A program made the position numbers and the translations under genes. Below the pieces are notes generated by a model. The model saw only the letters and a program-made list of their open reading frames with translations, made no database searches and was not told where the DNA came from. A stretch of 64,000 nt of DNA, taken from NCBI GenBank assembly GCA_963767885.1, contig CAVYFW010000003.1, positions 218,628 to 282,627 of the forward strand, written 5' to 3'. Shown one piece after another: positions 40,350 to 60,930 of the stretch; positions within the stretch are counted from its first letter, which is position 1; every line of letters starts with the position of its first letter. The DNA comes from an uncultured Actinomycetota bacterium. GTDB lineage: Bacteria; Actinomycetota; Thermoleophilia; Gaiellales; F1-60-MAGs149.

Positions 40350-42048
40350 CTACGCCGAGGGCTCGACGCCGTAGATGCGACGCGCGGCCTCGGGCGAGAC
40401 GTGGCGATCTGCGAGATCCTCGTGCACGAGCCCTGGGTCGCGCTCGGCCGGATCGCCGAAGCCGCCGCCGCCGCCCGTCATCGTGCGGATCACGTCGCCG
40501 CGCCGGAGCGGCATCGTGCTGCACTTGAGCAGCCGTCGCTCGTCGTCGCGACCCGGGTTGACGACGACGATGGGCGGGGTCGCGTCCTGGCCGCCGAAGA
40601 GGCCCCAGGCGGGCGTCCGCGAGCGCTCGAACCAGAGCGACATGACCGCGGCCTCGCCGTCGAGCGTGTACTCGCGGACGACGCCGTTGCCGCCGCGCCA
40701 CTGCCCGGGCCCGCCGGAGTCGGGGCGGAAGCCGTAGTGGGTCATCCGCAGCGGGTACTTCGTCTCCAGCACCTCGATCGGCGAGGTCCTTGAGCGAGCC
40801 GTTGACGTTGTTGATCAGCCCGTCCTGCGCCGTCGGAGCCGTTCCACGCGCCCCAGCCGCCGACGGTCGGCTCGAGGTCGAAGCCACGGCTGGCCGTTGC
40901 GGTGGTCGATGCCCGAGCAGCACGATCACCATCGAGTCGCCGTAGCTCGCGCCGGCCGCCTGCTCGGGCAGCACGTCGGACGAGCGCCTTGACGACGAGG
41001 TCGATCAGCAGGCCGAGCTGCGTGAAGTACCACTGGCACGGCGCGGGCGGCTGGGCGGCGAGCATCGAGCCGGGCCGCACGCGCACCGTGCAGCGGGCGG
41101 AACGCGCCGCCGTTCGGCGGGTTGTCGGGGTTGATCAGGAGCTTGTAGGCGACGCGACAGGCGCGAGATCGCCTGCGCCTCGCCGCAGTTGACCGGGCCC
41201 GGCTGCGGCGTCGTCGGTCTCGGAGAGGTCGATCGTCATCTCGTCGCCGCGCGATCTCGACGGAGAGCCGCACCCAGCACGGCTCGGCCGAGTCGACGCC
41301 GTCGTCGTCCAGGCATCCCTTCGGCGTGGTAGACGCCGTCGGGGATCGCCGCGACGGCCGCCCGCTCGAGGCGCTCCGTCTGCGCGAAGATCTCGTCCCG
41401 CGCCGCGGCGATCGTCTCGGTGCCGTACCGGTCGATGATCGCCGCGCAGGCGCTTCTGCCCGGTGCGCGCGCACGCGATCTGCGCGCCGAGGTCGCCGAT
41501 CGCCGGATAGGAGAAGCGGCTGTTGCGGCCGAGCAGGTCGGTCACGTCCCGGCGCTGGATCGCCTCCCTCGACGACCTTGGTCGGACCGAGCCGGATGCC
41601 CTCCTGGAAGATGCTCGTCGAGTCCATCGGCCCGCCCGGGTCCTTCGCGCCGACGTCGAGCCAGTGCGCGCGGCGACGCGGCGAAGCCGACCAGCTCGTC
41701 GTCGTGGAAGATCGGCCCGAAGACCGTCATGTCGTTGAGGTGCGTGCCGGTCAGGTACGAGTCGTTCATGATCCAGACGTCGCCGGGACGCCACGCCTCG
41801 CGGCCGTACATCTCCTCCGTCAGGCGCGTGCAGATCTCGAGGTTGCCGAGGAAGATCGGCAGGCCCGCCGACTGCCCGAGGACGCGGTGGTCGGCGTCGA
41901 GCAGCGCGACCGAGCAGTCCTTCATCTCGTAGATGACCGGCGTGTAGGCCGAGCGGATCAGCGTCGCGTTCATCTCGTCCGCGGCCGCCGTGAACGCGCT
42001 GCGGATGATCTCGGTCGTGATCGGGTCGACCGCGTTCGTGGCAGCCAT
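40350..42048 (-). pseudogene. hyuB: Hydantoinase B / oxoprolinase family subunit, copy 1; frame broken about ten or more times
   Basis: Co-linear with intact copy 3 but spread over ORFs 41542..42048, 41135..42517, 40926..41627, 40742..41086 and 40350..40772. The first 125 aa are near-identical in pattern (MAATNAVDPITTEIIRSAF..GPIFHDDELVGFAAS). Confidence 0.85.
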
Positions 42049-44124
42049 CAGGCGTCCTCTCCGGTCGCTGATGACGAGCGAGCCGAACGGCGTCGACGCG
42101 CAGGCGTGCGCCGGGCGGGACGACCGTCGTCGCGGTCGTGCTCCGTCGATGATCGCCGGGCCCGTCGAGCACCGCGCCCGGCGCGAGGTCGTCGCGGTGC
42201 ACGATCGTCGTCGGCAGCGCCTGCGCGGTCGAAGACGACCTCCCGCGTACCGCTGCCGGTAGCGTCGTGCGCGTCGACTCCGTGCTGCCGCGCCGGGTCG
42301 GCGCGGCCGAGGTCGCCGAGCGCCGTCGTGCGGACGACGACGAGCTCGACCGGCGCGCCGGGGTTGGCGTGGCCGAAGCGCGTGCTCGTGCGCCTCGTGG
42401 AAGCGGTCGGCGAGCTGCGTCGTCGAAGTCCTCCTCGAGCGGCTCGTCGGCGCCGAGCAGCGGGATCGTCAGGGTGTACTCCTGACCGACGTAGCGGATG
42501 TCGAGCGCATGCTCCACGCGGCCGGTGTCGCGGCGCGATGCCCTCCTCCTCGAGCGAGGCGTCGAAGCCTCCGCCTCGAGCTCGCGCGAGCGTCGCGGCG
42601 AGGTCGGCGTGATCGAGCGCCGCGAGCGGAGTGAAGTAGGCGCGCGCCGAGGTCCTTGCGGATCTCGGTCTCCAGCATCCCCCAGGCGGAGAACGCGCCG
42701 GGGAAGCGGCGGGACGATCGACCTCGCGCGATCTCGAGCTCCCGGGCGAGGAAGACGGCGTGCATCGGCCCGGCGCCGCCGAAGGCGACGAGCGCGAAGT
42801 CGCGCGGCTCGATGCCCTTCTCGACGGTCAGCGTGCGGATCGCCTGCGCCATCTTCGCGTTGATGACGTCGCAGATGCCCTCGGCCAGCTCGATCGGTCT
42901 CGAGGCCGAGCTCGTCGCCGAGCGCCGGCGAGCGCCTGCTCGGCCGCGTCGACGTCGAGCGTCATCTGGCCGCCGGCGAAGTACGGCCGGGTCGATGCGG
43001 CCGAGCGACGAGGTTCGCGTCGGTGACGGTCGGCCGTCGTGCCGCCGCGGCCGTAGCAGGCGGGGCCGGGGTCGGCGCCGGCGCTCTCCGGCCCGACGCG
43101 CAGGCCGCCCGCCTCGGCGTAGGCGAGCGAGCCGCCGCCGGCGCCGATCGTGTGGATGTTGACGACCGACATCAGGAGCGGGAAGCCCTCGAGCGTCGTC
43201 TCGGACGACGACGTCGGGCTTGCCGTCGACGACCAGGCTGACGTCGAAGCTCGTGCCGCCCATGTCGATGCAGATCAGGTTCGGCCGGTCGAGCATGCGC
43301 GCCAGCGCGACGCCGCCCATCGTCCCGCCGACCGGCCCGGAGAGCAGGGTCTGCAGCGAGCAGCTCGCGCGCCGACTGCGGCCGTGACGATGCCGCCGCA
43401 CGACTGCATCACGTGCAGCGGCACGGACAGCCCGCGGCGCTGCAGCTCGCTCTCGAGCCGCTCGAGGTAGCGGCGCACGACCGGCGCGGTGTAGGCGTCG
43501 ATGACCGCCGACGAGGTGCGCTCGTACTCGCGCCACTCGCGCGCGACGCGGTGCGAGAGGGAGACGGTGATCGCCGTCGAGCTCCTCGAGCAGGATCTCC
43601 TCGGCGCGCAGCTCGTGCGCCGGGTTGACGTAGGAGAACAGGAAGCGCGACGGCGACGGCGCCGAAGCCCTCCTCCCGCGCGCGCCGCGCCGCGGCGCGG
43701 ACGGCGTCCTCGTCCAGCGGCTCGAGCTCCTCGCCCGCCCAGTTCGAGCCGGCCGCCGATCTCGACGATGTCGCTGCGCGGGCACGAGCGGCGTCGGCTT
43801 GCGGTAGTGGATGTCGTAGAGGCGCAGTGCGGTTGCCGCGGGCGATGTGGTAGACGTCGCCGGCGCCGCGCGTCGCCAGCAGCAGCACCGCTCGCCGCGG
43901 CGCTGGAGGAAGGCGTTCAGGCCCTGCGTCGTGCCGTGCACCGTGAACGCCGATCTCGGCGGGCGTGTCGACGACGGCGCCGAGCGCCGCGAAGACGCCC
44001 TCGGTGAGGTCGCTTCGGCGTCGTCGACGACTTGCCCGCGCGGTACGTCCCGCTGCTCCTCGTCGTAGGCGACGACGTCCGTGAACGTGCCGCCGATGTC
44101 CATCGAGACCCGGTAGCGGCTCAT
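42048..44124 (-). pseudogene. hyuA: Hydantoinase A / oxoprolinase family subunit, copy 1; frame broken about a dozen times
   Basis: MSRYRVSMDIGGTFTDVV at ATG 44124. In-frame islands (FTVHGTTQGLNAFLQRRGER, FLFSYVNPAHELRAEEIL, LQTLLSGPVGGTMG..IDMGGTSFDVSLVVDG, AKMAQAIRTLTVEKGIEPRDFALVAFGGAGPMH) alternate with off-frame stretches of ORF 42469..44283. The stop overlaps the hyuB start (TGATG). Confidence 0.85.
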
Positions 44125-44366
44125 CCGGCCACCGCTCCGGCCCGGCGTGCTGCCGCGCACCTGCGCAGGAACGCACGCGGCCCGACCCGACGCCGCTCGC
44201 TGCGCGTCCGTCGCGGGCTCGTTCCGGCCTGGATCGCTAGCTCGTTCATGACACGCGCCTCTCCACCTGGGACGGCTCGGCATTCCTGCGCGGGTCAGTC
44301 TAGTAGCGGAGATACGAGAACACCAGACGTCCGCGATCGAGCGCGTCGTCTATGCTTGGACGGCGG

Positions 44367-44924
44367 ATGAACGCGGTGCTGGGACACGTCGGACGCCAGC
44401 TGCGCGCTCTGCGCACGGCCCGGCGGATCTCCCTCGCCGACCTGGCGCAGGACGTCGGCTACTCCGAGGGGTACCTCTCGCAGGTCGAGAACGGCGCCAC
44501 CGTGCCCGCCCTCAGCCTCCTCGCCGCCATCGCGGCGTCGCTGGGCACCGACATGACCGCCTTCTTCCCGCCGGAGGACTACCCGCGCGTGCACGTCTCG
44601 CGCGCCGGCGACCCGCACAAGGTGCGCATCGCGCCGAACGCGCGCGAGGAGTACACCCTGCTGACCCCGCGCGACCCGCAGGCGACGTTCACGGCGCTCG
44701 TCCACCAGCTCTACCCCACGGACGAGACCGTCCAGTACCGCCACGTCGGCGAGCGCTTCGCCCTCATCCTCGACGGCGAGGTCAGCCTCCGGATCGGCGG
44801 CGAGCAGTACGACCTCGGCGTCGGCGACACGATCCACTACTCCTCGCACGCCGAGCACGAGCTGCGCGTGACCTCGAACGGACCCGCCGAGATCCTATGG
44901 TTCGTCAGCCCGGCGATCATCTAG
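44367..44924 (+). CDS. XRE-family HTH + C-terminal cupin regulator (1a)
   Basis: RQLRALRTARRISLADLAQDVGYSEGYLSQVENG plus a cupin domain (HVGERFALILDGEVSL..GDTIHY). Start chosen by co-linearity with paralogue 59836... Divergent from hyuA copy 1. Confidence 0.85.
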   Translation: MNAVLGHVGRQLRALRTARRISLADLAQDVGYSEGYLSQVENGATVPALSLLAAIAASLGTDMTAFFPPEDYPRVHVSRAGDPHKVRIAPNAREEYTLLTPRDPQATFTALVHQLYPTDETVQYRHVGERFALILDGEVSLRIGGEQYDLGVGDTIHYSSHAEHELRVTSNGPAEILWFVSPAII

Positions 44925-45473: not shown

Positions 45474-46754
45474 TCAGGCGCGCGCCGCGACCAGGCCGCA
45501 CCAGTCCCGCACGAGCGTCACGAGCCCCGCCGTGACGTCCGCCACGGAGGGCAGCCAGACCCGCTCGTCGGCGGCGTGCAGGCCCTCGCCGGTGGCGCCG
45601 TAGAGGACGGTCGGCACGCCGGCGACGAGGCCGTAGGTGCGGGCGTCGGCGGCGCCGAGGACCGCGACGCGATCCGGCTCCCGGCCGGTCACCTCGCGGG
45701 CCGCTGCGGCCATCGCGCCGACGACCGCGGCGTCGTGCTCGAGCACGTAGGCGGGCGCGACGAAGCCCGGCCAGGTGACCTCGGGCGGCCGCGAGCCGAT
45801 GGGCGCGAGCGCCTCCTCGACCCGGCGGCGCACGTCGGCGATGTCGTGGCCCGGCAGGAGCGAGATGCGGCAGCGCAGGCGACAGTCGGGCGCAACGATC
45901 GAGGGGAGGACGCCGGCACCGACGACGCCGACGTTGACGAACACCGGGCGCGGCATGTCGAACGGCGGCTGCGCGTCGCGGTTGAGGGTGTCCTCGACCT
46001 CGCGCAGGGCCGCGAGCGCGTCGCCGATGAGCTCGACGGCGGAGCGGCCGCGCTGCTTCTCCGCGGTGTGCGACGCCGTGCCGATGAGGCGCACGTCGAA
46101 CCACAGCAGCCCGACCTGCGCCGTGCACAGATGACCGCCGGTCGGCTCCACGAGCACGCACGCGTCGACGTCCGCCTGGCCCGCCAGCGCGCAGGCAAGG
46201 GCTCCGTTGCCGCCCAGCTCCTCCTCGACGACGCTGTGCAGCGCGAGCCGGGATGCCGGTTGCAGCCCGAGGCGGCGGAGCACGCGCAGCGCGCCCACCA
46301 TCGCGGCGAGGCCGCTCTTCATGTCGCATGCGCCGCGGCCATACAGCCAGCCGGTGCCGTCGCGTCGCGGCTCGAAGGGCGCGCCGCTCCACAGGTCGGC
46401 GGGGTCCGCCGGCACGACGTCCACGTGTCCGCCCAGGAGCAGCGAGCGCCCGGCCGCCCCGCCGACGTCGGCCGGCGGCTGCCACGTCGCGACGACGTTC
46501 CGCTTGGCGCTGACGTCCCAGTCGAGGCGCGCGTGCAGCGGGTGCGCGCCCAGCACGGCCGGGTCGAGGCCGACGTCGGCCACCTCGAGGCCGACCGCGG
46601 CGAACGCGTCGGCCATCAGCACCTGGCCCGGCTCCTCGTCGCCGCACAGCGTCGGGGCCGCGACCAGCGAGCAGAGCAGGTCCTCGACGCCGGCCCGCTC
46701 GGCCTCGACGGCCGCGCGGATCTCCGCGGCGCCGGGCCGGACGCGGTCGCTCAT
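45474..46754 (-). CDS. M20-family metallopeptidase / deacylase (ArgE/DapE-like)
   Basis: LLLGGHVDVVP, GRGACDMKSG, EEELGGNG; intact 426 aa. Its start overlaps the hyuB-2 stop (ATGA). Confidence 0.85.
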   Translation of the reverse strand: MSDRVRPGAAEIRAAVEAERAGVEDLLCSLVAAPTLCGDEEPGQVLMADAFAAVGLEVADVGLDPAVLGAHPLHARLDWDVSAKRNVVATWQPPADVGGAAGRSLLLGGHVDVVPADPADLWSGAPFEPRRDGTGWLYGRGACDMKSGLAAMVGALRVLRRLGLQPASRLALHSVVEEELGGNGALACALAGQADVDACVLVEPTGGHLCTAQVGLLWFDVRLIGTASHTAEKQRGRSAVELIGDALAALREVEDTLNRDAQPPFDMPRPVFVNVGVVGAGVLPSIVAPDCRLRCRISLLPGHDIADVRRRVEEALAPIGSRPPEVTWPGFVAPAYVLEHDAAVVGAMAAAAREVTGREPDRVAVLGAADARTYGLVAGVPTVLYGATGEGLHAADERVWLPSVADVTAGLVTLVRDWCGLVAARA

Positions 46755-48477
46755 CGGCGGGCGGTGAACGTCTCGGGGCTCACGGTGACGCCGTACTGCT
46801 CGAGCGCCTCCTCGACCGTCACGTAGCCGTTGCGCACGTCGTCGGCGACGGCCTCGGGGTCGCGCTCGTGCGGATCGCCGTAGCCGCCGCCCGTGGCCGT
46901 GACGATGCGCACGAGGTCGCCGGCGCCGAGCGGGTGCCGCGCGACCTTCCCGAAGCGCTGCTCGGAGCCGTCCGCCGTGATCACGTCGACGTGGTTCGTC
47001 GAGCCGTTCTGCGCCGCCGTGCAGGCCCCACGCGGGAAACGCGTGGCGGCCGGCGGTCGAGGTGACGATCCAGCCGTCGCGCAGGATGCGGTACTCGCGG
47101 ATGCAGCCCGGGACCGCCGCGCTGCCGGCCCGCGCCGGCGCCGATCGGGTCGAGGCCGAAGCGCTCGACGCGCAGGCCGAAGCGTGCCTCGGCGACCTCC
47201 GCCTGCGTCACGAACGTCTCGCCGTCGAGGCAGCAGAACTGGCCGACGACGCCGTCGCGCCGACGGGTTCGCGCCCCAGCCGCCGACCTCCGGCTCGACG
47301 AGCACGACGAAGTCGCCGGTGTCGGCGTGCGGGCCGGCGACGATCGTGCCGCAGACCGACGCCATGTGGCCCGCGCCGCAGCCGGTCCGGGCAGGTGCGG
47401 CGCCATCGCCCGCCAGATCAGCTCCGCGCCGAAGGTCAGCGACTCCCAGTAGATCGAGCAGGGCGCGGGCCGCTCGGCGGAGAGGATCGATCCCGGCGGG
47501 CAGATCACCCGCAGCGGCGCGAAGGAGCCGTGGTTCGCCGCCGCGCTCGGCGTTCGTCAGCGCCTTGAACGCCACCTGCGCGGCGGAGAGCAGGCCGGTC
47601 GAGGTGTTGTTCACGGGCCCGGCGACCTGCGGGTGCGAGCCGCGTGAAGTCGCAGATGAACTCGTCGTCGGTGATCGTGACCTTCACCCGCACCTCGAAC
47701 GGGCCGTCTGCCGAGGCCGTCGTCGTCGATGTAGTCGACCGCGTCGAACGTCGCCCTTCGGCAGCTTCGCCAGCTCGAGCCGCGCGATCGTCTCGCCGTG
47801 CTCGATCAGCGCCTCGATCGTCTCGAGCACCGACGTCGACGCCGTACTTGTCGCAGACCTCGCGGAACGCGCGCTCGCCGACGCGCATCGCCGCCGCCTG
47901 CGCCATCAGGTCGCCGATCGTCTGCTCGGGCGTGCGCACGTTCGACGCGATCAGGTCGACGAGCGCCTCGTTCCGCTCGCCGCGGCTCCAGATCTTGACG
48001 TTCGGGAACTGGAGCCCCTCCTGGTAGATCTCGGTGGAGTCGGTCGTGAAGGAGCCGGGCGACATGCCGCCGACCTCGGTCCAGTGCGCCTTCGACACCG
48101 CGAACGCGAGCGAGCTGGCCGTCGACGAAGATCGGCGCGACGAGCGACACGTCCGAGAGGTGCGAGCCGCCGCCGATGTACGGGTCGTTCGTGATCACGA
48201 TGTCGCCGGGCTCGAGCCGGCCCTCCCACTTCGTCCAGCACGGCCTCGACGCTCGTCGTCAGCATGCCGATGAAGCCGGTCACGCCCTGGCCCTGCGTGA
48301 CCAGCCGCGCCGCTCGCGTCGGTCAGCCCGGTCGCGAAGTCGAGCACCTCGTAGATGATCGGGCTCATCGAGGTGCGCAGCAGCGTCGACGAACATCTCG
48401 TCGCCGACGGCGGCGAGGCGCGTCCTTGATGACCTCGATCGTGAACGGGTCGCCGCGTCGTCTTGCTCGGTCTGCAT
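46751..48477 (-). pseudogene. hyuB: Hydantoinase B / oxoprolinase family subunit, copy 2 (a subfamily divergent from copies 1 and 3); many frameshifts
   Basis: Fragments: MQTEQDDAA..LAAVGDEMFV (ATG 48477), ITNDPYIGGGSHLSDVSLVAPIFVDG (ORF 47806..48198), EIYQEGLQFPNVKIW (ORF 47505..), VVLVEPEVGGWGA and IVTATGGGYGDPHERDPEAVADDVRNGYVT (ORF 46751..47614). Confidence 0.8.
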
Positions 48478-48479
48478 CC

Positions 48480-50559
48480 TCAGGCTCCGGTGCGGACGAT
48501 GATGTTGCCGAAGCCGGTCGACGGTCGCCGTACATGCCGGGCGGCACGAGCGTCGTCGTCGCGGTCTCCTCGATCGCGGCGGGCCCGTCGATCTCGGCGC
48601 CCGGCGCCGAGCGCCGCCCGGTCGTAGACGGCCGCCTCGACCCGGCCGCGCTCGTCGAAGTCGATCGACGCGGCTGCCCGTGCGCGCCGGCGTCGCCGTC
48701 GCCGCCGGCGCGATCTCCCGCAGCGGCGGCTTGGCGCACCGTGCCGTACGCCGCGTGAGCCGGAACGTCACGAGCTCCGCCGGGCACGTCGAGCCGGAAC
48801 GTGTAGAGACGCTCGTGCGCGTCGTCGAAGCGGCGCCGCATCTCCGTCGCGCGTCGTCTCGTCGAGCGGCGCCGTCGGGAATCGGCACGGTCACCGTGTG
48901 CTCCTGCCCAGGTAGCGCATGTCCGCCTGGCGCACGAGGCGCACGTCGTCCGCGGCGACCCGCTCGCTCGCGAACGTCGCCGGCATCAGCTCCTCGAGCT
49001 CCGCCCAGATGGCGCCGGTGCGGTCCGGCGTCTGCGCGCGCGTCGAGCCGCATCAGCGACGTGCGCACGACGTCGTGGCGGATGTCGCTCATCAGCATGC
49101 CCGAGCGCCGAGAAGTGGCCCGGCGCCGTCGGCACGATCACCTCCGGGCACCTTCAGCTCCGCCGCCAGGAGCGCGCCGTGCAGCGGGCCGCCGCCGCCG
49201 CAGGCGACGAGCGCGAACTCTCGCGGGTCGCGGCCGCGCCGGACCGAGACCAGCCGGAGCAGGTTGACCATGCTCGCGTTGGCGATGCGCAGGATGCCGC
49301 GCGCCGTGTCCTCGAGCGACGGTGCCGAGCCGCTCGCCGAGCGCGGCCGATCGCGGCCCGCGGCGAGCTCCTCGTCGAGCGGCATGCGGCCGCCCATGAA
49401 GGCGACGGCGCCGATCCGACCGGTGACGAGGTTCGCGTCCGTCAGCGTCGCCTCCGTGCCGCCGCGCCCGTAGCACGCGGGGCCCGGATCGGCGACCGCC
49501 GAGTGCGGGCCGACCTTCAGCGAGCCCGCCGGGTCGATCCAGGCGATCGAGCCGCCGGCCATGCCGATCTCGATGATGTCGACGACCGGCACCTTCAGCG
49601 GATAGCCGGCGTTCCGCGGGGTCGCGGTCGATGTGGTAGTCGGCCGTCAGGCGCACCTCGCCGCCCTCGACCAGGCTCGACTTCGCGGTCGTGCCGCCGA
49701 CGTCGAAGGTGATCAGGTTCGGCCGCCCGATCGCCGCGCCGACGACGGCGGCGCCGATGATGCCGCCGACCGGCCCGGACTCGACGAGGTTGATCGGCGC
49801 CTGCCGGCGGCGACGTCGAAGCGCGACAGCCCGCCGTTCGACTGCATCGCGAAGTGCGTGTCGCGGTCGATGCCCGCGGCGTGCAGCCGCTCCGAGAGCC
49901 GCGTCAGGTACTGGCGGACGGTCGGCTTCACGTAGGCGTCGAGCACCGTCGTCGACGTGCGGTCGTACTCGCGCCACTCGCCGGACAGCTCGTGCGAGAC
50001 CGACAGCGTCGCACGTCGGGCCACTCCTCGGTGACGATCGCCGCCGCGCGCCGCTCGTGCTCCGGGTTGGCGTAGGCGTGCAGGAGGCAGATCGCGACCG
50101 CCTCGACGCCCGCGTCGCGCAGCGCGCGCACGGCCGCCCGGCGCACGCTCTCCTCGTCGAGCGGCGCCGACCACGCGCCCCTGGTAGTCGAGCCGCTCCT
50201 CCACCTCGAAGCGCAGGTGGCGGGGCACGAACGCGCTGCGGCTTGCGGAAGACGAAGTTGTAGAGGTCGGGCCGGTTGCCCTTCGCGATCTCGAGCACGT
50301 CCCGGAAGCCCTGCCGTGGTGATCAGGCCGACGCGCGCGCCCTTGCGCTCGGTCAGCGCGTTGATCACGACGGTCGTGCCGTGCGCCAGGAACGCCGACG
50401 TCGTCGAGCTCCGTCTGCCCGACGGCGTCCAGGACGCCCTCCTCGAAGGCCCGCGGCGTCGTCGCCGCCTTGGCCAGCGCCGACGTCGCCCGTCTCCTCG
50501 TCGAGGTGGACGAGGTCGGTGAACGTCCCGCCGATGTCGACGGCCACGCGCAGGGACAT
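48480..50559 (-). pseudogene. hyuA: Hydantoinase A / oxoprolinase family subunit, copy 2; many frameshifts
   Basis: MSLRVAVDIGGTFTDLV at ATG 50559. Other fragments: FLAHGTTVVINALTERKGARVGLITTAG, VLEIAKGNRPDLYNFVFRKPQ, FDVGGTTAKSSLVEGGEV, PVVDIIEIGMAGGSIAW, and REFALVACGGGGPLHGALLAAELKVP, spread across four frames. Confidence 0.8.
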
Positions 50560-51502: not shown

Positions 51503-53072
51503 CGCCGCAGGCTACCTCTCCGAGCCTGTCCGAAGCACGCCCGCAACACCTCCTCGCTCCCGGCATCCGGCCCGAACTCCCTGACGACCCGGCCCAGGCG
51601 CAGCGCCAGGGTGCGGTGCGCGAGGCCGACCACCTCCTCGATCTCGCTGGAGATGGCGATGATCGCGATCCCGCCGGCGGCGAGCTCGACGAGCAGCTTG
51701 TGGATCTCCCCCTTCGCGCCGACGTCGACGCCGCGCGTCGGCTCGTCCACGATCAGGACGCGTGGTGTGCCGCGCGAGCCAGCGGGCGAACAGCACCTTC
51801 TGCTGGTTGCCGCCGGAGAGCGTGCCGACCGTCGCCTCGATGCCGGTCCCGCGCACGTCGAGGCGGTCGAAGAGGCTCCGCACGCGGCGCGCCTCGCTGG
51901 CGCGCCGGACGAAGCCGGCGCGCTCGTGCTGGTCGAGCGTGGACAGCGTGATGTTCTCCCGGATCGAGCGCAGCAGCAGCAGCCCCTCGTCCTTGCGGCT
52001 CTCCGGCACCATCGCGATGCCGTGCGCGGATCGCCTCGCGCGGGCTGCGCACGGCGATCGGCTCGCCGTCGAGGAGGATCTCGCCGGCGTCGCTCCGGTC
52101 GGCGCCGAAGAGCAGGCGGGCGGTCTCGGTGCGCCCGGCGCCGACGAGGCCGGCGAGCCCGACGATCTCGCCCGCGCGCACGTGCGAGCGAGACGTCGCG
52201 CACGACGTCGCCGCGGCGCAGGCCCCGTCGCCTCGAGCACGACGGGCGCATCGGTCGACGCCGCCTTCGGCGGATACGTCAGGTCGACGTCGCGCCCGAC
52301 CATCGCCGCGACCAGCGTCTGCGGCGTCTCGACCGAGGCCGGGCCCGTGCGGACGACGCGCGCGTCGCGCATCACGGTCACGGTCTCCGACGACGGCGAG
52401 CACCTCGTCGAGGTAGTGGGAGACGAGCACGATCGACGTGCCCTCGCGCGGCGAGGCGGCGGATCACGTTCAGCAGCCGGTCGGTCTCGTCCGCGGTCAG
52501 CGCGGCGGTCGGCTCGTCCATCACGATCATCCGCGCGTCCGCGCGCGAGCGCGCGCAGGATCTCGACCTTCTGCTGGTCGGCCACGCGCAGGCCGCCGAC
52601 GATCGGCGTCCGGCGAGAGTCCGAAGCCGATCCGCTCGTCGAGCGCCCGGTAGGCACGTCCGTAGCGCCCCCCGGTCGACCATGCCGGCCCGTCGCGGCT
52701 CGACGCCGAGGAACACGTTCCCCTCGACCGTGCCCTGGCGGACGAGGGCGATCTCCTGCGCGATCAGGGCGATGCCACAGTCGAGCGCGTCGCGCGGCGC
52801 CGAGAAGCGCACCGGCTCGCCGTCGACGAGGATCTCGCCCTCGTTCGGCTGGTGGGCGCCGCCGATCGCCTTGGCAAGCGTCGACTTGCCGGCGCCGTTC
52901 TCGCCGACGAGGCCGTGCACGGAGGCGCGGCCGAAGGCGACGGACACGTCGCGGAGCGCGCGAACGCCGCCGAAGTTCTTCGAGACGCCGCGAACCTCGA
53001 CGAGGGGGCCGGCCGTCGGGCCGGCCCCCTCGCTCGAGTGGGGCGTCGGATCGCTTCTGGGTCGGAAGCCAC
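51499..53072 (-). pseudogene. CUT2-type ABC transporter ATP-binding protein (two NBDs); about 8 or more frameshifts
   Basis: Walker A GENGAGKSTL, MDEPTAALT, second Walker [19 protein letters not shown] and [15 protein letters not shown] are distributed over ORFs 52378..52947, 51753..52430, 51512..52657 and 51499..52251. The start near 53072 is tentative. Confidence 0.8.
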
Positions 53073-53077
53073 CTGCG

Positions 53078-54306
53078 TCAGCCGAGGTCGGAGTAGACCC
53101 CTTCGACGTCCGCCAGCACGTCCTTCGTGCCGTGCGGATCGTGGAGCGTCTGCGTGTCGAAGGAGGTGGGCGGGTTGAGGTCGTTCGCCGCCAGCACCCC
53201 GACGTCGACCGAGGTGGTGCCGAGGCCGGGCAGGTCCATGTAGTAGAGGGCGTACCAGGTGCCGTCGTTGACGTGCGCGAAGGCCTCGGTGGAGGAGCCG
53301 TTGCCGATCAGCGCGACCTTGCTGGTGTCGACGACGTCGGTGGCTCCGAGGATCGCCTGCGACGAGCCGACCATCACGTTGACGTCCGGGTTCGCCTGCA
53401 TGACGTCCTGCGCGGCCTTCTGCCCGGTCTCCGGCGTGTAGCCGCCCTCGGGCTCGGCAACGAGCTTCGGCGTCGGGCGCCCCCTCGGCCAGCGCGGCCT
53501 TGAAGGCGTCCGTGCGGGCGTTGTCGAGGGGCAGGGTCTTCAGGCCCTGGAGGTACGCGACCTTGCAGGGCGACTTGTCTGCACAGGCCGAGGCCGCGAG
53601 CTCGCCGAGCACCGTGCCGTTCGCGATCGGCGTCTCGCCGACCACGTACGTGCCCTCGACCTGCGGCTCGAGCGTGTCGAACTTGCCACCGAACGGCGTG
53701 AACGCGGCGACGACCTTGACGCCCTTGGCGGTCGCCTCGGCGGCGGCGGAGCCGGCGCCGACCGGGTCGGTCGCGAGCACCACGTAGACCTGGGCGTCGC
53801 CCTTCGCCGTCTGGTCCTGCATCGCCTTCACCTGCGCCGGGCCGTCGTAGGCCGGGCCGGTGAGGTCGACGAACTCGATGCCGAGCTTCTCCGTCTCCGC
53901 CTTCACGGCCTGCGGCGACGGCCTGGGTGAACGAGTTCGACTTCCAGAAGCCGAAGAACGCGAGCTTCTTGACGTTACCGGCCTCGGTCGGCGCGCTGAT
54001 GCCGGCAACGGCCTCGGTCGCAGCCTCGGTCGCCTCCGATGTGGCGGCCTCGGTGGCTTCCGAGGTGGCCTCCTCGGTGGCGGCCTCGGTGGCTTCCGAG
54101 GTGGCCTCCTCGGTGGCGGCCTCGGTCGCCGCCTCGCTGGTCGCGGCCTCCGTGGCCGGCGCCTCCGCGGCGCTCGTCGCGGCCGGCGCGGCGCTCTCCG
54201 CCGACGTCGTGCCATCGTCGTCGCCGCCGCACGCCGCCGCCAGGCTGACGACGCCGATCACGATGACGGTGAGCCACGCCCACCACCTGCTGTTTCGTCC
54301 CATCAT
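53078..54306 (-). pseudogene. Sugar-type (Peripla_BP_4-like) ABC substrate-binding lipoprotein with a Thr/Glu/Ala-rich repeat linker; at least 3 frameshifts
   Basis: Lipobox VSLAAAC after ATG 54306. The body KLAFFGFWKSNSF / VYVVLATDPVG..KVVAAFTPFGG / NVMVGSSQAILGA..IGNGSS is split over ORFs 53374..54306, 52764..54215 and 53078..53401. Confidence 0.8.
54041..54130. repeat. 36-bp tandem repeat, about 2.4 copies, inside the SBP linker
   Basis: GTGGCGGCCTCGGTGGCTTCCGAGGTGGCCTCCTCG occurs exactly twice (54041-54076 and 54077-54112), then once partially. It encodes TEEATSEATEAA repeats on the minus strand. Confidence 0.85.
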
Positions 54307-55457
54307 CCGCTCCCCTCCTCTGAGAGTGGTTCCGCACTGTCGCCCGCGGTCGCGAAGGCCGGCGGGACGACGAGCTCACGGGGCAGCGAGGAGATGATCG
54401 TCGGCTCGCCGTCCGTGACGACGACGACGTCCTCGATGCGAATGCCTCCGATGCCGGCGGCGTAGATGCCCGGCTCGATCGTCAGCACCGTGCCCGCCGC
54501 CATGGGCGCGTCGCCGCGCGGCGTCAGGAACGGCGGCTCGTGCACGTCGATGCCGATCGCGTGGCCGGCGCCGTGCAGGCACGCGCCGAGCTCCGGCGAG
54601 GCCTCGACGACCGTGCGCTGCGCCGCGTCGACGTCGCGGCCCGTGGCACCGGCGCGGGCGACCTCGATCGCGCGGGTCTGCGCCTCCATGACGACGTCCC
54701 AGGCGGCCCGCGCCCACTCGCTCGGCTCGCCGGCCGACCCGCAGCGCGTGAGGTCGGCCCAGTAGCCGTCGATCTGCGCCGAGATGTCCGCGCAGATCAC
54801 CTCCCCACGGCGCAGCTGACGCGCGCCGGGCTTGCCGTGCGGGTTGGCGGCGTTGGCGCCGAACAGCACGAGCGCGTGCGCGTCCGTGGCGCCGGCCTCG
54901 CGCAGCAGGTTCGACACCTTGGCGTTGACGGCGTGCTCGACGTCGCCCTCCCCCAGCTCGTCGAACATCCGCGCCATCACGCGCTCGACGATGTCGACGG
55001 CGTGGCGGATGCGCTCGATCTCGGCGGCGTCCTTCGCCTCGCGCAGCGCCATCAGGATGCGACCTGCGGGCCGCAGCTCCTTGCCGGCGGCGGTCAGCGC
55101 CAGCGCGCGTCCGTAGACGAGGTGGTCCTCCTCGACGCCGACGGCCGCGCCCTCGCCGAGCGCGGCCACGACGTCGGCCATGCCGTCGGACGACGCCGGG
55201 TAGACGACGCGCTCGAAGCTGCGCGGGACGTCGGCGATGGCCTCGGACTCGAGGTGCGGCACGACGATCGTCGGGCGGCCGCGGACGGGCACGGCGACGG
55301 CGAAGAGGCGCTCGAGCTGGATGCTGGAGAACCCGGTCAGGTACGCGATCGAGGCGTCGCTCGTCGCCAGCACGGCCTGGAGGCCCGCATCCGCCGCGGC
55401 GCTCCGCACCGCGTCGAGACGTGCCTCGAACACTCCCGTTGCAGCGGCGTCGCTCAT
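54303..55457 (-). CDS. M24-family Xaa-Pro peptidase (creatinase-like N-domain + metal-dependent pita-bread domain)
   Basis: Metal-ligand contexts ICADISAQIDGYWADLTR, HGAGHAIGIDVHE, TIEPGIY, IRIEDVVVV. Intact 384 aa. Its stop overlaps the SBP start (ATGA). Confidence 0.9.
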   Translation of the reverse strand: MSDAAATGVFEARLDAVRSAAADAGLQAVLATSDASIAYLTGFSSIQLERLFAVAVPVRGRPTIVVPHLESEAIADVPRSFERVVYPASSDGMADVVAALGEGAAVGVEEDHLVYGRALALTAAGKELRPAGRILMALREAKDAAEIERIRHAVDIVERVMARMFDELGEGDVEHAVNAKVSNLLREAGATDAHALVLFGANAANPHGKPGARQLRRGEVICADISAQIDGYWADLTRCGSAGEPSEWARAAWDVVMEAQTRAIEVARAGATGRDVDAAQRTVVEASPELGACLHGAGHAIGIDVHEPPFLTPRGDAPMAAGTVLTIEPGIYAAGIGGIRIEDVVVVTDGEPTIISSLPRELVVPPAFATAGDSAEPLSEEGSG

Positions 55458-55512: not shown

Positions 55513-55878
55513 TCACGACGCCTCCGCCTCGACCGCCAGCACGACGTCGTAGACCGCGCCGCGCACGGCCGCGTCGAAGTCGCCTTCGACGAGCTCTGCG
55601 AGCATCGGCCGGGTCGCCTCCCGCAGCGGGTTCGCGAGCCACCCCTCGTAGGCGCCGGCGTCGCGCCAGAGCGCCGTCACGAGGATCGGCGCACCCGGCT
55701 CGCGCGGCACCTGGAGCTCTGCCGACAGGCAGCCCTCCTGTCGCAGCGCGGTCTCGAGGATCTCCTCTCGACGGTACAGACCGACGATGTCGTCGCTGCC
55801 GCCCGCGCGGGGCGGCAGGTAGAGAACGCTGCGGATCAACGCCGGCTCGCTTCCGGGTCGGAATTCCTGTTCGCGCAT
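55513..55878 (-). CDS. Small ABM/Dabb-like protein, 121 aa (tentative)
   Basis: ATG 55878 inside ORF 55513..56061. ILVTALWRDAGAYEGWLANPLRE resembles ABM-domain proteins. It lies between hyuB copy 3 and the M24 gene. Confidence 0.55.
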   Translation of the reverse strand: MREQEFRPGSEPALIRSVLYLPPRAGGSDDIVGLYRREEILETALRQEGCLSAELQVPREPGAPILVTALWRDAGAYEGWLANPLREATRPMLAELVEGDFDAAVRGAVYDVVLAVEAEAS

Positions 55879-55948: not shown

Positions 55949-57634
55949 TCACCGGCCGTCCCAGCCGTACGTCGAGCGCGCCTGCTCGCGGCTGACGACG
56001 CCGTCGCGCACGTCGCGGGCGATCGCCTCCTGCTGCCGCTCCGCCGGATCGCCGTAGCCACCGCCGCCGCCCGTCAGCCCGCGGATCACGTCGCCCCGCC
56101 CGACCCGTAGCCGCGCGGCCTTGAGCAGGTGGCGCTCGTCCTCGCGGCCGGGGTTGACGACGACGTCGGGCCCGGCGCCGTCAGCGCCCCCGGCGAGGCC
56201 CCAGGCGGGCGTGCGCGAGCGCTCCCACCAGAGCGACACGTACGCCTCCTCGCAGTCGAAGGCGAACTCGCGGATGACGCCGTGGCCGCCGCGGAACCGT
56301 CCCGCTCCGCCCGAGTCCGGACGGATGCGGTACTCCGTCATGCGCATCGGCAGGCGCGTCTCGAGCACCTCGATCGGCAGGTCCTTCATCCCGGCGTTGA
56401 CGCTGTTGATGAGCGCGCTCTCGCCGTCGCCGGTCGACCACCCGCCCCAGCCGCCGGTCGTCGGCTCGATGTGGAAGAAGCCGCCACCCGTGCGGTGGTC
56501 GAGGCCGGCGACCATGAAGATCATGGAGTCGCCGTAGCTCGCCGCCGCGGCTCGCTCCGGCAGCACCGGGGCGAGCGCCTTGACGACGAGGTCGATGAGC
56601 AGGCCGAGCGGCGTGAAGTACCAGGCACACGGCGCCGGCGCCTCGGCGGCCAGCACGGAGCCGCGGCGCACGCGCACCTCGAGGGCGCGGAAGGAGCCGC
56701 CGTCGGTGGGCCGCGCGGGGTCGACGAGCAGCTTGAAGGCGACGCGGCAGGCGGAGATCGCCTGCGCCTCGCCGCAGTTCACGGGCCCGCCGCGCAGGTC
56801 GCTGGACTCGCCCAGGTCGACGATCATGCGGTCGCCGGCGACCTCCACGCGCACGCGCACCCAGACGGGCTCGCCGAGGCGGATGCCGTCGTCGTCGAGA
56901 CAGCCCTCGGCGGTGTACACGCCGTCGGGGATCGCCGCGACGATCTCCCGCTCGAGCCGCTCCGTCTGCTCGTAGATGCGGTCGCGCGCGGCGGTCACGG
57001 TCGGCATGCCGAAGCGGTCGATGATCGCGCCGAGCCGCTGCTCGCCGATGCGCACGCAGGCCATCTGCGCCTGCAGGTCGCCGAGCATCGGCTGCGGGAA
57101 GCGGGAGTTGCGCGACAGCAGGTCGAGCATGTCGCGGCGGGGCACGCCGCCCTCGACGAGCCGCGTCGGCCCGAGGCGCAGGCCCTCCTGGAAGATCTCC
57201 GTGGAGTCCATGGGCGCGCCGGGGTCCTTCGCTCCGACGTCGAGCCAGTGCGCGCGCGAGGCCGCGAAGCCGACGAGGGCCTCGTCGTGGAAGATCGGCC
57301 CGAAGACCGTGACGTCGTTGAGGTGGGTGCCGGCGAGGTAGGAGTCGTTCATGATCCAGACGTCACCGGGTCGCCACGCCTCGCGGCCGTACCACTCCTC
57401 CGTCAGACGCGTGCAGATCTCGAGGTTGCCGAGGAAGATCGGCAGGCCGGACGACTGGCCGAGGACGCGGTGGTCGGCGTCGAGCAGCGCGACCGAGCAG
57501 TCCTTCAGCTCGTAGATGATCGGCGTGTACGCGGACCGGATCAGCCCGGCGTTCATCTCGTCGGCGGCGGACGAGAACGCGCTCCGGATCACCTCGGTGG
57601 TGATCGGGTCGACGGCGATGCTGGTGGCGGCCAT
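55949..57634 (-). CDS. hyuB: Hydantoinase B / oxoprolinase family subunit, copy 3, intact (561 aa)
   Basis: Uninterrupted ORF. DPITTEVIRSAF, NDSYLAGTHLNDV, GGWGG, GGGGYGDP. Confidence 0.9.
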   Translation of the reverse strand: MAATSIAVDPITTEVIRSAFSSAADEMNAGLIRSAYTPIIYELKDCSVALLDADHRVLGQSSGLPIFLGNLEICTRLTEEWYGREAWRPGDVWIMNDSYLAGTHLNDVTVFGPIFHDEALVGFAASRAHWLDVGAKDPGAPMDSTEIFQEGLRLGPTRLVEGGVPRRDMLDLLSRNSRFPQPMLGDLQAQMACVRIGEQRLGAIIDRFGMPTVTAARDRIYEQTERLEREIVAAIPDGVYTAEGCLDDDGIRLGEPVWVRVRVEVAGDRMIVDLGESSDLRGGPVNCGEAQAISACRVAFKLLVDPARPTDGGSFRALEVRVRRGSVLAAEAPAPCAWYFTPLGLLIDLVVKALAPVLPERAAAASYGDSMIFMVAGLDHRTGGGFFHIEPTTGGWGGWSTGDGESALINSVNAGMKDLPIEVLETRLPMRMTEYRIRPDSGGAGRFRGGHGVIREFAFDCEEAYVSLWWERSRTPAWGLAGGADGAGPDVVVNPGREDERHLLKAARLRVGRGDVIRGLTGGGGGYGDPAERQQEAIARDVRDGVVSREQARSTYGWDGR

Positions 57635-59674
57635 CAGGCCTCCTTCCCGATCCGCATCAGCAGCGCCCCGAGGGCATCCACCACGAGCGTGGTGCCCGGC
57701 GGGACGACCGTCGTCGCGGTCTGCTCGTTGACGATGGCCGGCCCGTCGACCGCGGTGCCGGGGGCGAGATGGGAGCGCTCGAGGATCTGCGTGTCACGCG
57801 GGGCGCGGCCGAAGACGGCGGCGCGGCGAGGGGCGCTGCCGTTGCCGGAGACGACGTCGGGTGGCGCCGGTGCGGCGCGGCCGAGGTCGCCGAGCGCCGT
57901 CGTGCGGACGACCACGAGCTCGACGGGCGCGCCGGGGTTCGCGTGCCCGTAGCGGGTCTCGTGCGCGTGGTGGAAGCGCTCCTCCAGGCGGTCGAGGAAG
58001 GCGTCGCGCTGCGGGTCGTCGGCGCCGTCGATGGGGATCGTCAGCGTGTACTCCTGGCCCACGTAGCGGACGTCGACCGGCATGCAGCAGCAGCCGCGTG
58101 TCGGCCGGCACGCCCTCCCGATCGAGCGCTGCGACGCCGTCGCCCTCGAGCGCGGCGCACGCGGCGGCGAGCTTGTCCAGCGGCGCCTCGCGCGCGACGG
58201 CGTAGAACGGCTGGCTGAAGTCCTGGCGGATCTGCGTCTGCAGCATGCCCCAGGCGGAGAACGCGCCCGGGTCGGCCGGGACGATGACCTCCGCGATCTC
58301 GAGCTCGCGGGCGAGGAAGGCGGCGTGCATCGGGCCGGCGCCGCCGAACGCGACGAGCGAGAAGTCGCGCGGCTCGATGCCCTGCTCCACCGTGAGCGTG
58401 CGGATCGCCTGCGCCATCCGCGCGTTGATGACGTCGAGGATGCCCTCGGCCAGCTCCTCCACGCCGAGTCCGAGCTCGCCCGCGAGGTCGGCGACCGCGG
58501 CGCGGGCCGCCCCGACGTCGAGCGTCATCGTGCCGCCGGCGAAGTGCTCCGGGTCGACGCGGCCGAGCACGAGGTTCGCGTCCGTCACGGTCGGCCGCGT
58601 CCCACCGCGGCCGTAGCAGGCAGGGCCCGGGGCGGCCCCGGCGCTCTCCGGGCCGACGCGGAGCCCGCCGGCCTCCGAGCGAGCCAGCGAGCCGCCGCCC
58701 GCGCCGATGGTGTGGATGTTGACGATGCTCATGAGCAGCGGGAAGCCCTCGAGCGAGGTCTCCGAGGCGACGTCGGGCTGTCCGTCGACGACCAGCGAGA
58801 CGTCGAACGAGGTGCCGCCCATGTCGATGCCGATGAGGTTCGGGCGCTGCAGTGCCTCCGACAGCGCGACGAGCCCCATGGTGCCGCCGACGGGTCCGGA
58901 GAGCAGCGTCTGCAGCGGCCGGTCGCGCGCGCTCTCCGCGGTGAGGATGCCGCCGTTCGACTGCATCACGTGGAGCGGCACGGCGAGGCCGCGGTCGCGC
59001 ATCTCGTCCTCGAGCCGCCGCAGGTAGCGGCGGACGACGGGTGCCGTGTAGGCGTCGAGCACCGTCGAGGCGGTGCGCTCGTACTCGCGCCACTCCCGTG
59101 CGACGCGGTGCGAGAGCGAGACGGGCACCTCGCCCAGCTCCTCGCGCAGGATCTCCGCCGCGCGCAGCTCGTGGGCCGGATCGACGTAGGAGAAGAGGAA
59201 GGCGATCGCCACGGAGCCGAAGCCCTCGTCGCGCACCCGCTGCGCCGCCGCCCGGATCGCCGCCTCATCGAGCGGGGCGAGCTCCTCGCCGGTGTAGGTG
59301 AGGCGACCGGGGATCTCGACGATGTCGCCGAGCGGGACGAGCGGCTCGGGCTTCTCGTAGTGCAGGTCGTAGAGGCGGTGGCGGTCGCCGCGCGCGATGT
59401 GGTAGACGTGGCCGGCGCCGGCCGTGGCGAGCAGCAGCACACGCTCGCCGCGGCGCTGCAGGAAGGCGTTCAGCCCCTGCGTCGTGCCGTGCACCGTGAA
59501 GTCGATCTCGGCGGGGGAGTCGATCACCTGCGCGAGTCCCGCGAGCACGCCCTCCGCGAGGTCGTGGGGGGTCGTGGACGACTTGCCGGCGGCGTAGCGG
59601 CCACGCTCCGTGTCGTAGGCGACGACGTCGGTGAACGTGCCGCCGATGTCCATCGAGACCCTGTACGCGCCCAT
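57634..59674 (-). pseudogene. hyuA: Hydantoinase A / oxoprolinase family subunit, copy 3; single frameshift near 58085
   Basis: ORF 57794..59674 (MGAYRVSMDIGGTFTDVV..) carries about 530 good residues. The C-terminus VDVRYVGQEYTLTIP..LMRIGKEA is in ORF 57634..58083. RBS AGGAGG precedes ATG 59674. Confidence 0.9.
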
Positions 59675-59785
59675 CCGGCCTCCTACTCGCCGTTCCGCTC
59701 CTGCTTGATGACTCCCGGCAGAAGAGGAAGGGCACTGCCGCGAGATCCCGGATTCGAGCTGTGCATTACTCCCTGGGTGAAGATA

Positions 59786-59805
59786 CGTTCTCTGAGAAGA
59801 GAACG
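59786..59805. promoter_or_regulatory. Perfect 20-bp palindrome CGTTCTCT-gaga-AGAGAACG; candidate XRE operator in the hyuA-3 / regulator divergent promoter
   Basis: 8-bp arms with a 4-nt spacer, 30 nt upstream of ATG 59836. A TAGACT -10-like hexamer (59823-59828) lies 7 nt before that ATG. Confidence 0.4.
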
Positions 59806-59835
59806 CAAGCGCCTCGCTGAGCTAGACTCGCGGCG

Positions 59836-60393
59836 ATGGACTCGGTGGTGATGGACATCGGTCGGCAGCTGCGCGCGCTGCGCCGCGCCCGTCGCCGGAC
59901 GCTCGAGGAGCTCGCCGCCGAGACCGGCTTCACCAGGAGCTACCTGTCCCAGATCGAGACGGGCGAGGCGACGCCGAGCCTCGGAGCGCTCGCCGCGATC
60001 GCGGCTGCGCTCGGCACCGAGCTCGCAGCCTTCTTCCCGCTCCGGGCCGGCCCGGCAGTCCACGTCTCGCGCGCCGGCGACCCGGTGAAGCTGCGCGTCG
60101 AGCCGAACTCGCACGAGGAGTACGTCGTCCTCGGCGGACGCCGGCCGGGGGCCGCCTTCACCGCCGTGCTCGCCCGCTACTTCCCGGGCGAGTCGGTGGG
60201 CCGCAACAGCCACCTCGGAGAGCGCTTCGCCCTCGTGTTGTCAGGTGACGTCGCGATCAACGTCGGCGGCGAGCGGCGGACGCTGGCCCCGGGCGAGTGG
60301 CTGCACTACGCCGCGCAGCCGGAGGACACGCTCGAGGTCGTCTCCCACGGACCTGCGGAGGTGCTTTGGCTGGTCGTGCCGGCGATGATCTGA
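59836..60393 (+). CDS. XRE-family HTH + cupin regulator (3a)
   Basis: RQLRALRRARRRTLEELAAETGFTRSYLSQIETG plus a cupin domain (HLGERFALVLSGDVAI..GEWLHY). Paralogue of 44367..44924. Confidence 0.85.
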   Translation: MDSVVMDIGRQLRALRRARRRTLEELAAETGFTRSYLSQIETGEATPSLGALAAIAAALGTELAAFFPLRAGPAVHVSRAGDPVKLRVEPNSHEEYVVLGGRRPGAAFTAVLARYFPGESVGRNSHLGERFALVLSGDVAINVGGERRTLAPGEWLHYAAQPEDTLEVVSHGPAEVLWLVVPAMI

Positions 60394-60404
60394 ACGGAGA
60401 CGGG

Positions 60405-60930
60405 ATGGCGCTCGCCGCGAGCGTCGGCAGCCGCCTGCGCGCCCGCCGCGCGGCACTCGGCTGGACGCTCGCGGAGACGGCCGCCCAGGCCGACGTCTCG
60501 GTCTCCTACCTCTCCTCGATCGAGGTCGGACGCAGCGTGCCGTCGCTGCCGATCCTCGCGCGGGTCTCGACGACGCTCGGCCTCTCGCTCAACGAGGCGC
60601 TGCGCGGCCTCGGTCGCAACGTCGTCGACGGCGGGCGGCTCGACAGCGGCGCGCCGGGAGTCGAGCGCACCTCCAGCCCGTCCCTGGAGCTGGAGATCGG
60701 CACGCTCGTCGCAGACCCGGGCAGCGCCGGCCCGAGCCCTGTGCCGGTCAGCGGCGGCGAGCTCTTCGTCTACGTCGTCGCCGGTGCACTCGAGGTGGAG
60801 CTCGACGGGACGCCGCACATGCTCCGGCGGGGCGACTCGATCGACGCGGAGGCGCCCGGCGTCCGCCGCCTACCGCGTTCCGGACGAGGAGCGCTCGGTC
60901 AGCGTCTGGTCGACCGTGCCGGGCTCCTGA
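60405..60930 (+). pseudogene. Second XRE-family HTH + cupin-like regulator (3b), one frameshift near 60850
   Basis: ATG 60405 follows GGAG. SRLRARRAALGWTLAETAAQADVSVSYLSSIEVG. The C-terminus ASAAYRVPDEERSVSVWSTVPGS is in another frame, with the stop at 60928-60930. Confidence 0.75.

Follow-up and report, generated by a model that had tools for sequence, protein, structure and literature searches.

A conserved hydantoinase-family gene cluster with overlapping XRE-cupin regulator genes in an uncultured Actinomycetota bacterium

We analysed a stretch of 64,000 nucleotides (nt) from an uncultured Actinomycetota bacterium (contig CAVYFW010000003.1; hereafter the window), which between positions 40350 and 60930 holds three pairs of hyuA and hyuB genes of the hydantoinase/oxoprolinase family (modules 1 to 3), an ATP-binding cassette (ABC) transporter, two hydrolase genes and two tandem pairs of XRE-cupin regulator genes, the proximal member of each pair being termed a and the distal one b. 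On balance, and with modest confidence, we read this stretch as a catabolic island whose overlapping a/b pair would act as a heteromeric local repressor, with an older paralogous mini-module beside it and with frameshifts that are artefacts of the assembly. It would represent one copy of an island conserved among soil Actinomycetota, the mini-module being hyuA1-hyuB1. A run of ten genes would import a cyclic amide of the lactam, hydantoin or cyclic-dipeptide type, the ATP-dependent HyuAB enzymes would open its ring, and a prolidase-like M24 peptidase together with an ArgE/DapE-like M20 enzyme would complete the hydrolysis. Both the run and hyuA1-hyuB1 would be transcribed divergently from an overlapping a/b pair, and the two regulators, made together, would repress as a heteromer from operators in the divergent spacer until binding of the substrate, or of an intermediate, to the cupin of a relieves repression.

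The genes were compared with those of a sister contig (contig_61149 of the ENA metagenome ERZ25039565, 33.6 kb, loci L001 and L002), which is collinear with window positions 40350-60931 at 93.5-96% nucleotide identity. Features of the stretch, with protein lengths in amino acids (aa), are as follows.

40350..42048, minus strand: hyuB1, Hydantoinase_B (PF02538) 555 bits, about 561 aa; aligned to HyuB3 and to the intact sister-contig orthologue P0103
42048..44124, minus strand: hyuA1, Hydant_A_N and Hydantoinase_A, about 683 aa; stop abuts the hyuB1 start
44125..44366: module 1 divergent spacer
44367..44924, plus strand: reg1a, a-type XRE-cupin regulator, 185 aa, intact; HTH_31 50 bits, Cupin_2 48.4 bits
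44897..45469, plus strand: reg1b, b-type regulator, 190 aa, intact; XRE helix-turn-helix (HTH) and predicted degenerate cupin; ATG at 44897, 28-nt overlap with reg1a
45474..46754, minus strand: M20 (ArgE/DapE-family) deacylase, 426 aa, intact; NF005306 350.6 bits against a cutoff of 376
46751..48477, minus strand: hyuB2, Hydantoinase_B, about 572 aa; 508/572 identical to the intact L012 orthologue
48480..50559, minus strand: hyuA2, about 684 aa; 614/682 identical to the intact 682-aa sister-contig orthologue
50563-51538, minus strand: ABC permease (BPD_transp_2)
about 51526-53058, minus strand: ABC fused double ATPase
53078-54306, minus strand: ABC binding protein (Peripla_BP_4; SBP), with a repetitive Ala/Thr/Glu linker
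54303..55457, minus strand: M24 metallopeptidase, Creatinase_N and Peptidase_M24 (Pfam), 384 aa, intact
55513..55839, minus strand: small ABM-domain protein (Pfam PF03992), 108 aa, intact
55949..57634, minus strand: hyuB3, 561 aa, uninterrupted; P0001 is 99% identical
57634..59674, minus strand: hyuA3, about 679 aa; one +1 frameshift at about 58078
59675..59835: module 3 divergent spacer
59836..60393, plus strand: reg3a, a-type XRE-cupin regulator, 185 aa, intact; HTH_31 56.4 bits, Cupin_2 32.7 bits
60366..60930, plus strand: reg3b, b-type regulator; one +1 frameshift at about 60861; likely start TTG at 60366 (28-nt overlap with reg3a), alternative ATG at 60405

With HyuA3 and HyuB3 as queries, tblastn recovered the three minus-strand hyuA/hyuB loci (40350-44124, 46751-50559 and 55949-59674). 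Together with the two tandem regulator pairs, they reproduce the coordinates of a first-pass annotation of the window, in which the two quoted HyuB N-termini are also exact. From hyuA3 onwards ten minus-strand genes follow one another (hyuA3-hyuB3-ABM-M24-SBP-ATPase-permease-hyuA2-hyuB2-M20) with gaps of 0-110 nt and several overlaps, and thus the run reads as a single transcription unit. The M20 gene is the last of the run and converges on reg1b with 4 nt between them; hyuA1-hyuB1 (40350-44124) forms a separate two-gene unit. Module 2 had been presented as a module of its own from a more divergent subfamily. The divergence is borne out by the identities (HyuA2 42-43% to HyuA1 and HyuA3, HyuB2 35-39% to HyuB1 and HyuB3), but module 2 is the distal part of the ten-gene run that starts at module 3.

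One genome per species was scanned with a HyuB alignment, which yielded 80 loci whose neighbours were laid out by tblastn. The order regb<rega<>(M24)-ABM-hyuA-hyuB-(M24)-SBP-ATPase-permease-hyuA2-type-hyuB(-hyuB) was found in 24 of them, mostly in Thermoleophilia (Gaiellaceae, Solirubrobacterales, Conexibacter sp. S30A1, Capillimicrobium) and some in Acidimicrobiia, and the layout recurs, with intact genes, on Illumina metagenome contigs. The regulator pair of Conexibacter sp. S30A1 lies at around 1.529-1.551 Mb of NZ_CP097127. Since the layout is repeated across genomes, several Hyu systems per cluster, two of them on either side of an ABC transporter, are a conserved arrangement that extends beyond the window. 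In most related loci the ABM protein is a conserved partner of hyuA. Homologues at 60-65% identity occur without the regulator pair in Streptomyces, Amycolatopsis and similar genera. In loci L004-L008, L016, L026-L030 and L035 a single HyuA2-type gene precedes two HyuB paralogues. At locus L083 (1-9600) an a/b pair stands divergent from a run of two M24 genes, an amidase and an ABC transporter, with no HyuAB, so that the regulator pair tracks the M24/transporter core rather than HyuAB alone.

The neighbourhoods confirmed the two-regulator arrangement as real and conserved: all 24 related loci with a also carry b, and b was never seen without an a directly upstream in an overlapping frame. Nineteen pairs are fully resolved, and in every one the start of b lies within the end of a, with an overlap of 4 or about 28 nt; both window pairs are of the 28-nt form, and the N-terminus of reg3b agrees with the b-family consensus. 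All four window regulators score above the Pfam cutoffs for HTH_3 and HTH_31. At Pfam thresholds the label "HTH-cupin", previously given to all four, suits the proximal regulators reg1a and reg3a and fails for the distal ones, reg1b having the HTH only, with no Pfam cupin match, and reg3b a Cupin_2 score of 21.9 bits under a cutoff of 27.2. Nevertheless, when alignments of 21 a-type and 20 b-type proteins are compared, homology between the two families spans their whole length (hhalign 99.7% over 173 columns, barrel included), and both families keep the conserved XRE recognition helix. RHxGERF and HYSSHxxH are conserved in the barrel of the a-type proteins. These His/Glu residues are absent from the b family, which has invariant positions of its own in both domains and a mean column identity of 53% (60 sequences).

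An AlphaFold2 model of reg1b (predicted local distance difference test score 82) consists of five helices followed by a beta barrel, and its best PDB matches are 1y9q, an HTH_3-cupin protein of V. cholerae, and 6b8w, the isolated cupin domain of an XRE regulator (template modelling score 0.81 on the target). Furthermore, about a third of the b homologues hold a precomputed Cupin_2 match. Judged by the profile comparison and the model, the distal regulator b is an XRE HTH protein with a degenerate cupin in which the barrel fold is kept. The sensor pair of the first-pass annotation is therefore not one of equivalent members, because the cupin of the second regulator is degenerate and has lost the His/Glu residues that a conserves. 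The b family has few members, with only 52 cluster representatives at E<=1e-30 among 1.84 billion proteins.

Two XRE-cupin modules also occur within one polypeptide. We found single-chain (XRE-cupin)x2 proteins (P0299, P0304, P0318, P0325, P0386 and P0388), 387-417 aa long and with the HTH and the cupin domain each present twice, and the gene for P0325 is divergent from a hyuA homologue whose product is 40% identical to the window HyuAs. At L093 668-3191 two such genes are neighbours on one strand. No description of these proteins was found in the literature searched.

The divergent spacers hold several candidate operators. In that of module 1 there are two weak candidates, CACCTGCGCAGGAA (44158-44171) and TTCCTGCGCGGGTC (44283-44296). 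The sequence TTCCTGCGC has four copies in the window, two of them in the same spacer, and the 14-mer TTCCTGCGCAGGAA has 6 matches at <=3 mismatches against 1.65 expected, two of them again in the module 1 spacer, which is suggestive only. The module 3 spacer contains a perfect 8-N4-8 inverted repeat, CGTTCTCT-N4-AGAGAACG (59786-59805), a candidate operator only. The two spacers share GTTCTC ... GTATCT(C/T)C (44305-44325 and 59776-59810), and the module 1 spacer resembles that of module 3 minus about 12 nt, one palindrome arm included, which suggests common ancestry of the spacers. Among related loci, palindromes are clade-specific: TTTGC-N4/5-GCAAA, TCCTG-N5-CAGGA (twice each in the L050 and L068 intergenic regions) and CCTGCGCAGG.

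Most hyu genes are frameshifted in the assembly as given, on which the first-pass annotation was silent. As written, about 97 single-base indels, nearly all of them (about 95%) +1 insertions, break hyuA1, hyuB1, hyuA2, hyuB2 and the ABC transporter genes, and of the hyu open reading frames in the window only that of hyuB3 is uninterrupted. Frames were corrected with a frameshift-tolerant protein-to-DNA aligner against intact orthologues of the sister contig, L012 and Illumina contigs. This required 13 corrections in hyuB1 (single-base insertions between 41673 and 40779), 26 in hyuA1, 16 in hyuB2, 24 in hyuA2, 15-16 in the transporter (9-10 in the ATPase, 4 in the permease, 2 in the binding protein) and one each in hyuA3 and reg3b. 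The dense +1 insertions, about 1 per 100 nt, lie at window positions 40700-44100 and 47000-54000, where the sister contig is 6-7% divergent; in indel-free segments it is about 1% divergent. On the sister contig hyuB1 and hyuA2 are intact, and its own frameshifts number 24 in hyuA1 and one each in hyuA3, reg1b and M24. One database protein is a reg1a-reg1b fusion that arises from frameshifts.

The insertions carry the mark of the assembly. Among 131 single-base insertions relative to the sister contig, 98 (75%) are not beside an identical base, by which homopolymer-type sequencing error was ruled out, and the inserted bases have the composition of the genome. On the window branch, with L012 or L011 as outgroup, 3-30 substitutions per gene stand against 7-22 extra bases (in hyuA1, 10 window-specific substitutions against 22 extra bases), and insertions equal or exceed substitutions in most gene/outgroup combinations; such a ratio appears implausible under natural decay. 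Moreover, 43 of 51 (84%) isolated window-only insertions adjoin a site that is polymorphic between the sister contig and the outgroup, with both alleles written in series, against 10% in the control (p=1.6e-34). Because two alleles stand in series at the insertions, the consensus appears to have merged two haplotypes, and on this sequence evidence the frameshifts are a consensus artefact of the assembly where the haplotypes diverge (about 40.7-44.1 kb and 47-54 kb). The frameshifted genes are most likely intact in the organism. We regard it as very improbable that modules 1 and 2 and the transporter have decayed into true pseudogenes and that only hyuA3-hyuB3 and the small accessory genes still function. 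The sheer number of frameshifts in the sequence as given would fit decay, as would the roughly 5-6 hyuA1 positions shared with the sister contig, but we rejected real pseudogenisation of modules 1 and 2 because of the spectrum of the insertions, the counts on the window branch and the two-allele test. In addition, the corrected frames are stop-free except for one stop in the permease and one at the extreme end of hyuB2, the differences from the sister contig are biased to third codon positions with a ratio of nonsynonymous to synonymous rates of 0.11-0.42, and related-population assemblies of the same accession series are likewise fragmented with frameshifts at different places. The hyuA1 gene of the sister contig (L002 7936-9998) has a very long branch of its own, with about 205 substitutions at codon positions in a ratio of roughly 1:1:1.7, and by eye several of the changes resemble the hyuA3 paralogue; this pattern suggests paralogue cross-talk in polishing, or gene conversion.

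How a and b work together allows other readings. It is rather unlikely that they act independently, each as a homodimer with its own operators and possibly its own effectors, a for example controlling the hyu run and b regulating itself or answering a second signal. Known XRE-cupin factors are homodimers (PMC7901475), the recognition helix is kept in both proteins and several spacers hold two separate palindromes, as at L050 and L068. However, b lacks the His/Glu residues of the a cupin and is thus unlikely to sense a ligand as a does, it was never found without an overlapping upstream a, and the fused double proteins point to two modules acting jointly. Improbable, to a greater degree, is a role of b as an antagonist or modulator that draws a into a non-productive complex or one of altered specificity, in analogy to SlrR, which tunes SinR among the XRE proteins of Bacillus. 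The degenerate sensor domain with its retained fold would suit such a role, and the overlapping frames imply fixed co-expression, yet co-translation in a fixed ratio would be odd for a regulator of a regulator, and there is no sign of separate control of b. A more far-reaching version of the heteromeric repressor is possible but doubtful: a/b would be an obligate heteromer of a ligand-sensing and a sensor-dead subunit and would correspond, in split form, to the single-chain (XRE-cupin)x2 proteins. The two forms would make up an undescribed two-module class of XRE-cupin regulators, which here would gate an ATP-dependent cyclic-amide catabolic pathway widespread in soil Thermoleophilia and Acidimicrobiia.

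Several observations weigh against our reading of a catabolic island under joint a/b repression with artefactual frameshifts. Two of three sampled single-chain (XRE-cupin)x2 genes stand in unrelated contexts, and the double proteins may not be orthologous to a/b. No operator motif common to 21 intergenic regions was found, the candidates being weak and clade-specific, and a simple scan of both window spacers for sigma-70-type promoters gave no promoter-like sites. The substrate class is a guess from the enzyme families, and the Peripla_BP_4/BPD_transp_2 type of transporter is more typical of sugars. The coincidence of about 5-6 hyuA1 frameshift positions between window and sister contig exceeds exact-column chance, although per codon the excess becomes marginal (6 positions coincide within 1 aa where about 2.7 are expected) and MAFFT is prone to drawing gaps together; a few real lesions in hyuA1 may exist.

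As had been noted, modules 1 and 3 share homologous enzymes and regulators and the same layout: HyuA1 and HyuA3 are 72% identical, HyuB1 and HyuB3 71%, and the regulators 51% (a) and 44% (b). The segmental duplication proposed on these grounds, which suggests a recent event within the genome, is contradicted by the phylogeny and the identities. In a neighbour-joining tree HyuB1 lies deep in a large clade and HyuB3 groups with P0002, and the two are sisters in 0/100 bootstraps. HyuB1 is up to 86% identical to orthologues from other lineages, and the relatives of HyuB3 reach at most 77% apart from the sister contig. Because HyuB1 and HyuB3 are not sisters and HyuB1 is closer to other lineages, modules 1 and 3 are, as far as this tree and these identities indicate, old paralogues or xenologues and no recent segmental duplication.

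The assignment of the HyuA and HyuB proteins to the hydantoinase/oxoprolinase family holds, since all six frame-corrected proteins pass the Pfam models: HyuA1, HyuA2 and HyuA3 reach 173-185 bits for Hydant_A_N (PF05378) and 297-340 bits for Hydantoinase_A (PF01968), with Hydant_A_C in HyuA2 and HyuA3, and Hydantoinase_B (PF02538) gives 555 bits for HyuB1, 547 for HyuB3 and 257 for the C-terminal part of HyuB2. The earlier statement that the substrate cannot be read from the sequence stands as well, because all copies fall far below the equivalog cutoffs. For the caprolactamase equivalogs NF050156/NF050157 (cutoff 1000 bits) the HyuA proteins score 481-537, HyuB1 and HyuB3 280-282 and the partial HyuB2 107 bits; for the acetophenone carboxylase equivalogs ApcA/C/D (cutoffs 1250-1500 bits) the maximum is 307 bits. 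The best solved matches are fused N-methylhydantoinase (7HK5/9H03; 434 and 293 bits, full length) and then caprolactamase (6YRA; 387 and 215 bits), both distant. As to the partners of the creatinine pathway (creatinine/cytosine deaminase and N-carbamoylsarcosine amidase), the cluster showed neither a deaminase nor a CSHase gene, and the M24 peptidase is prolidase-like rather than creatinase-like, its closest solved relatives being Xaa-Pro dipeptidases/prolidases. The prolidase-like M24 and the M20 deacylase together suggest a ring-opened amide or a dipeptide-like intermediate. The literature search on a link between HyuAB, prolidase and diketopiperazines returned nothing relevant. At window positions 54009-54166 a 12/36-nt tandem repeat, after the signal/lipobox region, encodes the Ala/Thr/Glu-rich linker of the ABC binding protein, and its copy number differs between window and sister contig.

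The window has a G+C content of about 72%, and Rfam and tRNA scans of it gave no matches. The closest protein relatives come from metagenome-assembled genomes of Gaiellaceae and Thermoleophilia; in the collection of species-representative genomes the best HyuB match is 73%. Collinearity between the window and the sister contig stops at 40350. The flanks examined (36331-40326 and 60975-63004) carry the following genes.

37959-38405: stand-alone cupin protein
38512-39372, minus strand: sigma-70 family factor
39778-40323, plus strand: RibD_C-like reductase
60975-61955: EamA transporter
62000-63004: MBL-fold protein

If the pairing is functional, a very common group of bacterial repressors of metabolism would gain an asymmetric sensor, with one ligand-competent and one ligand-dead subunit. 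Such an asymmetric design is known in other regulator families, and for XRE-cupin proteins none was found in the literature searched. The analysis also flags a conserved HyuAB/ABM/prolidase-like M24/M20/ABC cluster in abundant and poorly studied soil Actinomycetota, and the cultured carrier Conexibacter sp. S30A1 makes the cluster testable. Moreover, closely spaced +1 "frameshifts" in metagenomes assembled from long reads can represent two alleles in series, and such regions are not to be taken for pseudogenes.

Among characterised systems, the enzymes resemble the ATP-dependent hydantoinase/oxoprolinase family (N-methylhydantoinase, CapAB, 5-oxoprolinase and HyuAB of Pseudomonas sp. NS671) in their shared domains and in the abutting hyuA-hyuB order. 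The ten-gene run also contains an M20 hydrolase gene, as the classical hyu operon contains hyuC. Unlike in those systems, the partners here are an ABM protein, a prolidase-like M24 peptidase and a Peripla_BP_4 ABC transporter, and there are two or three Hyu systems per cluster. With acetone and acetophenone carboxylases (5M45/5SVB and 5L9W) both subunits share distant homology, with much weaker matches, and no genes for gamma/epsilon subunits of that type were seen in the cluster; the related loci with one HyuA and two HyuB paralogues recall the multi-paralogue Apc complexes of acetophenone carboxylase. The single-chain (XRE-cupin)x2 proteins, like a/b, bring two XRE-cupin modules together, but they do so in one polypeptide in which both cupins are above Pfam thresholds.

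The regulators share an N-terminal XRE HTH, a C-terminal cupin and a length of about 185 aa with the P. aeruginosa XRE-cupin local repressors ErfA, PsdR and PauR, with E. coli PuuR and with V. cholerae 1Y9Q, the last being the best solved match of the a profile, the b profile and the reg1b model; they are not PuuR orthologues, the scores for the PuuR equivalog NF007408 (cutoff 211 bits) being 41.8, 36.3 and 20.6 bits. In Pseudomonas, XRE-cupin factors (ErfA, PsdR, PauR and others) act locally, repressing metabolic genes next to their own, and as dimers they bind palindromes; the same study does not mention tandem or heterodimeric forms (PMC7901475). No description of a link between hyuAB and XRE-cupin proteins, or of XRE-cupin heterodimers or pairs, was found in the full-text literature searched. 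Thus local repression of neighbours by XRE-cupin factors is known from that study, and only the obligate a/b pairing appears to be undescribed in the searchable literature. The genes of these local repressors adjoin the metabolic or transport genes that they control, and the a/b pairs likewise adjoin such genes, divergently. However, the described members are single genes whose products form homodimers, whereas here two overlapping paralogues always occur together, one of them with a degenerate cupin.

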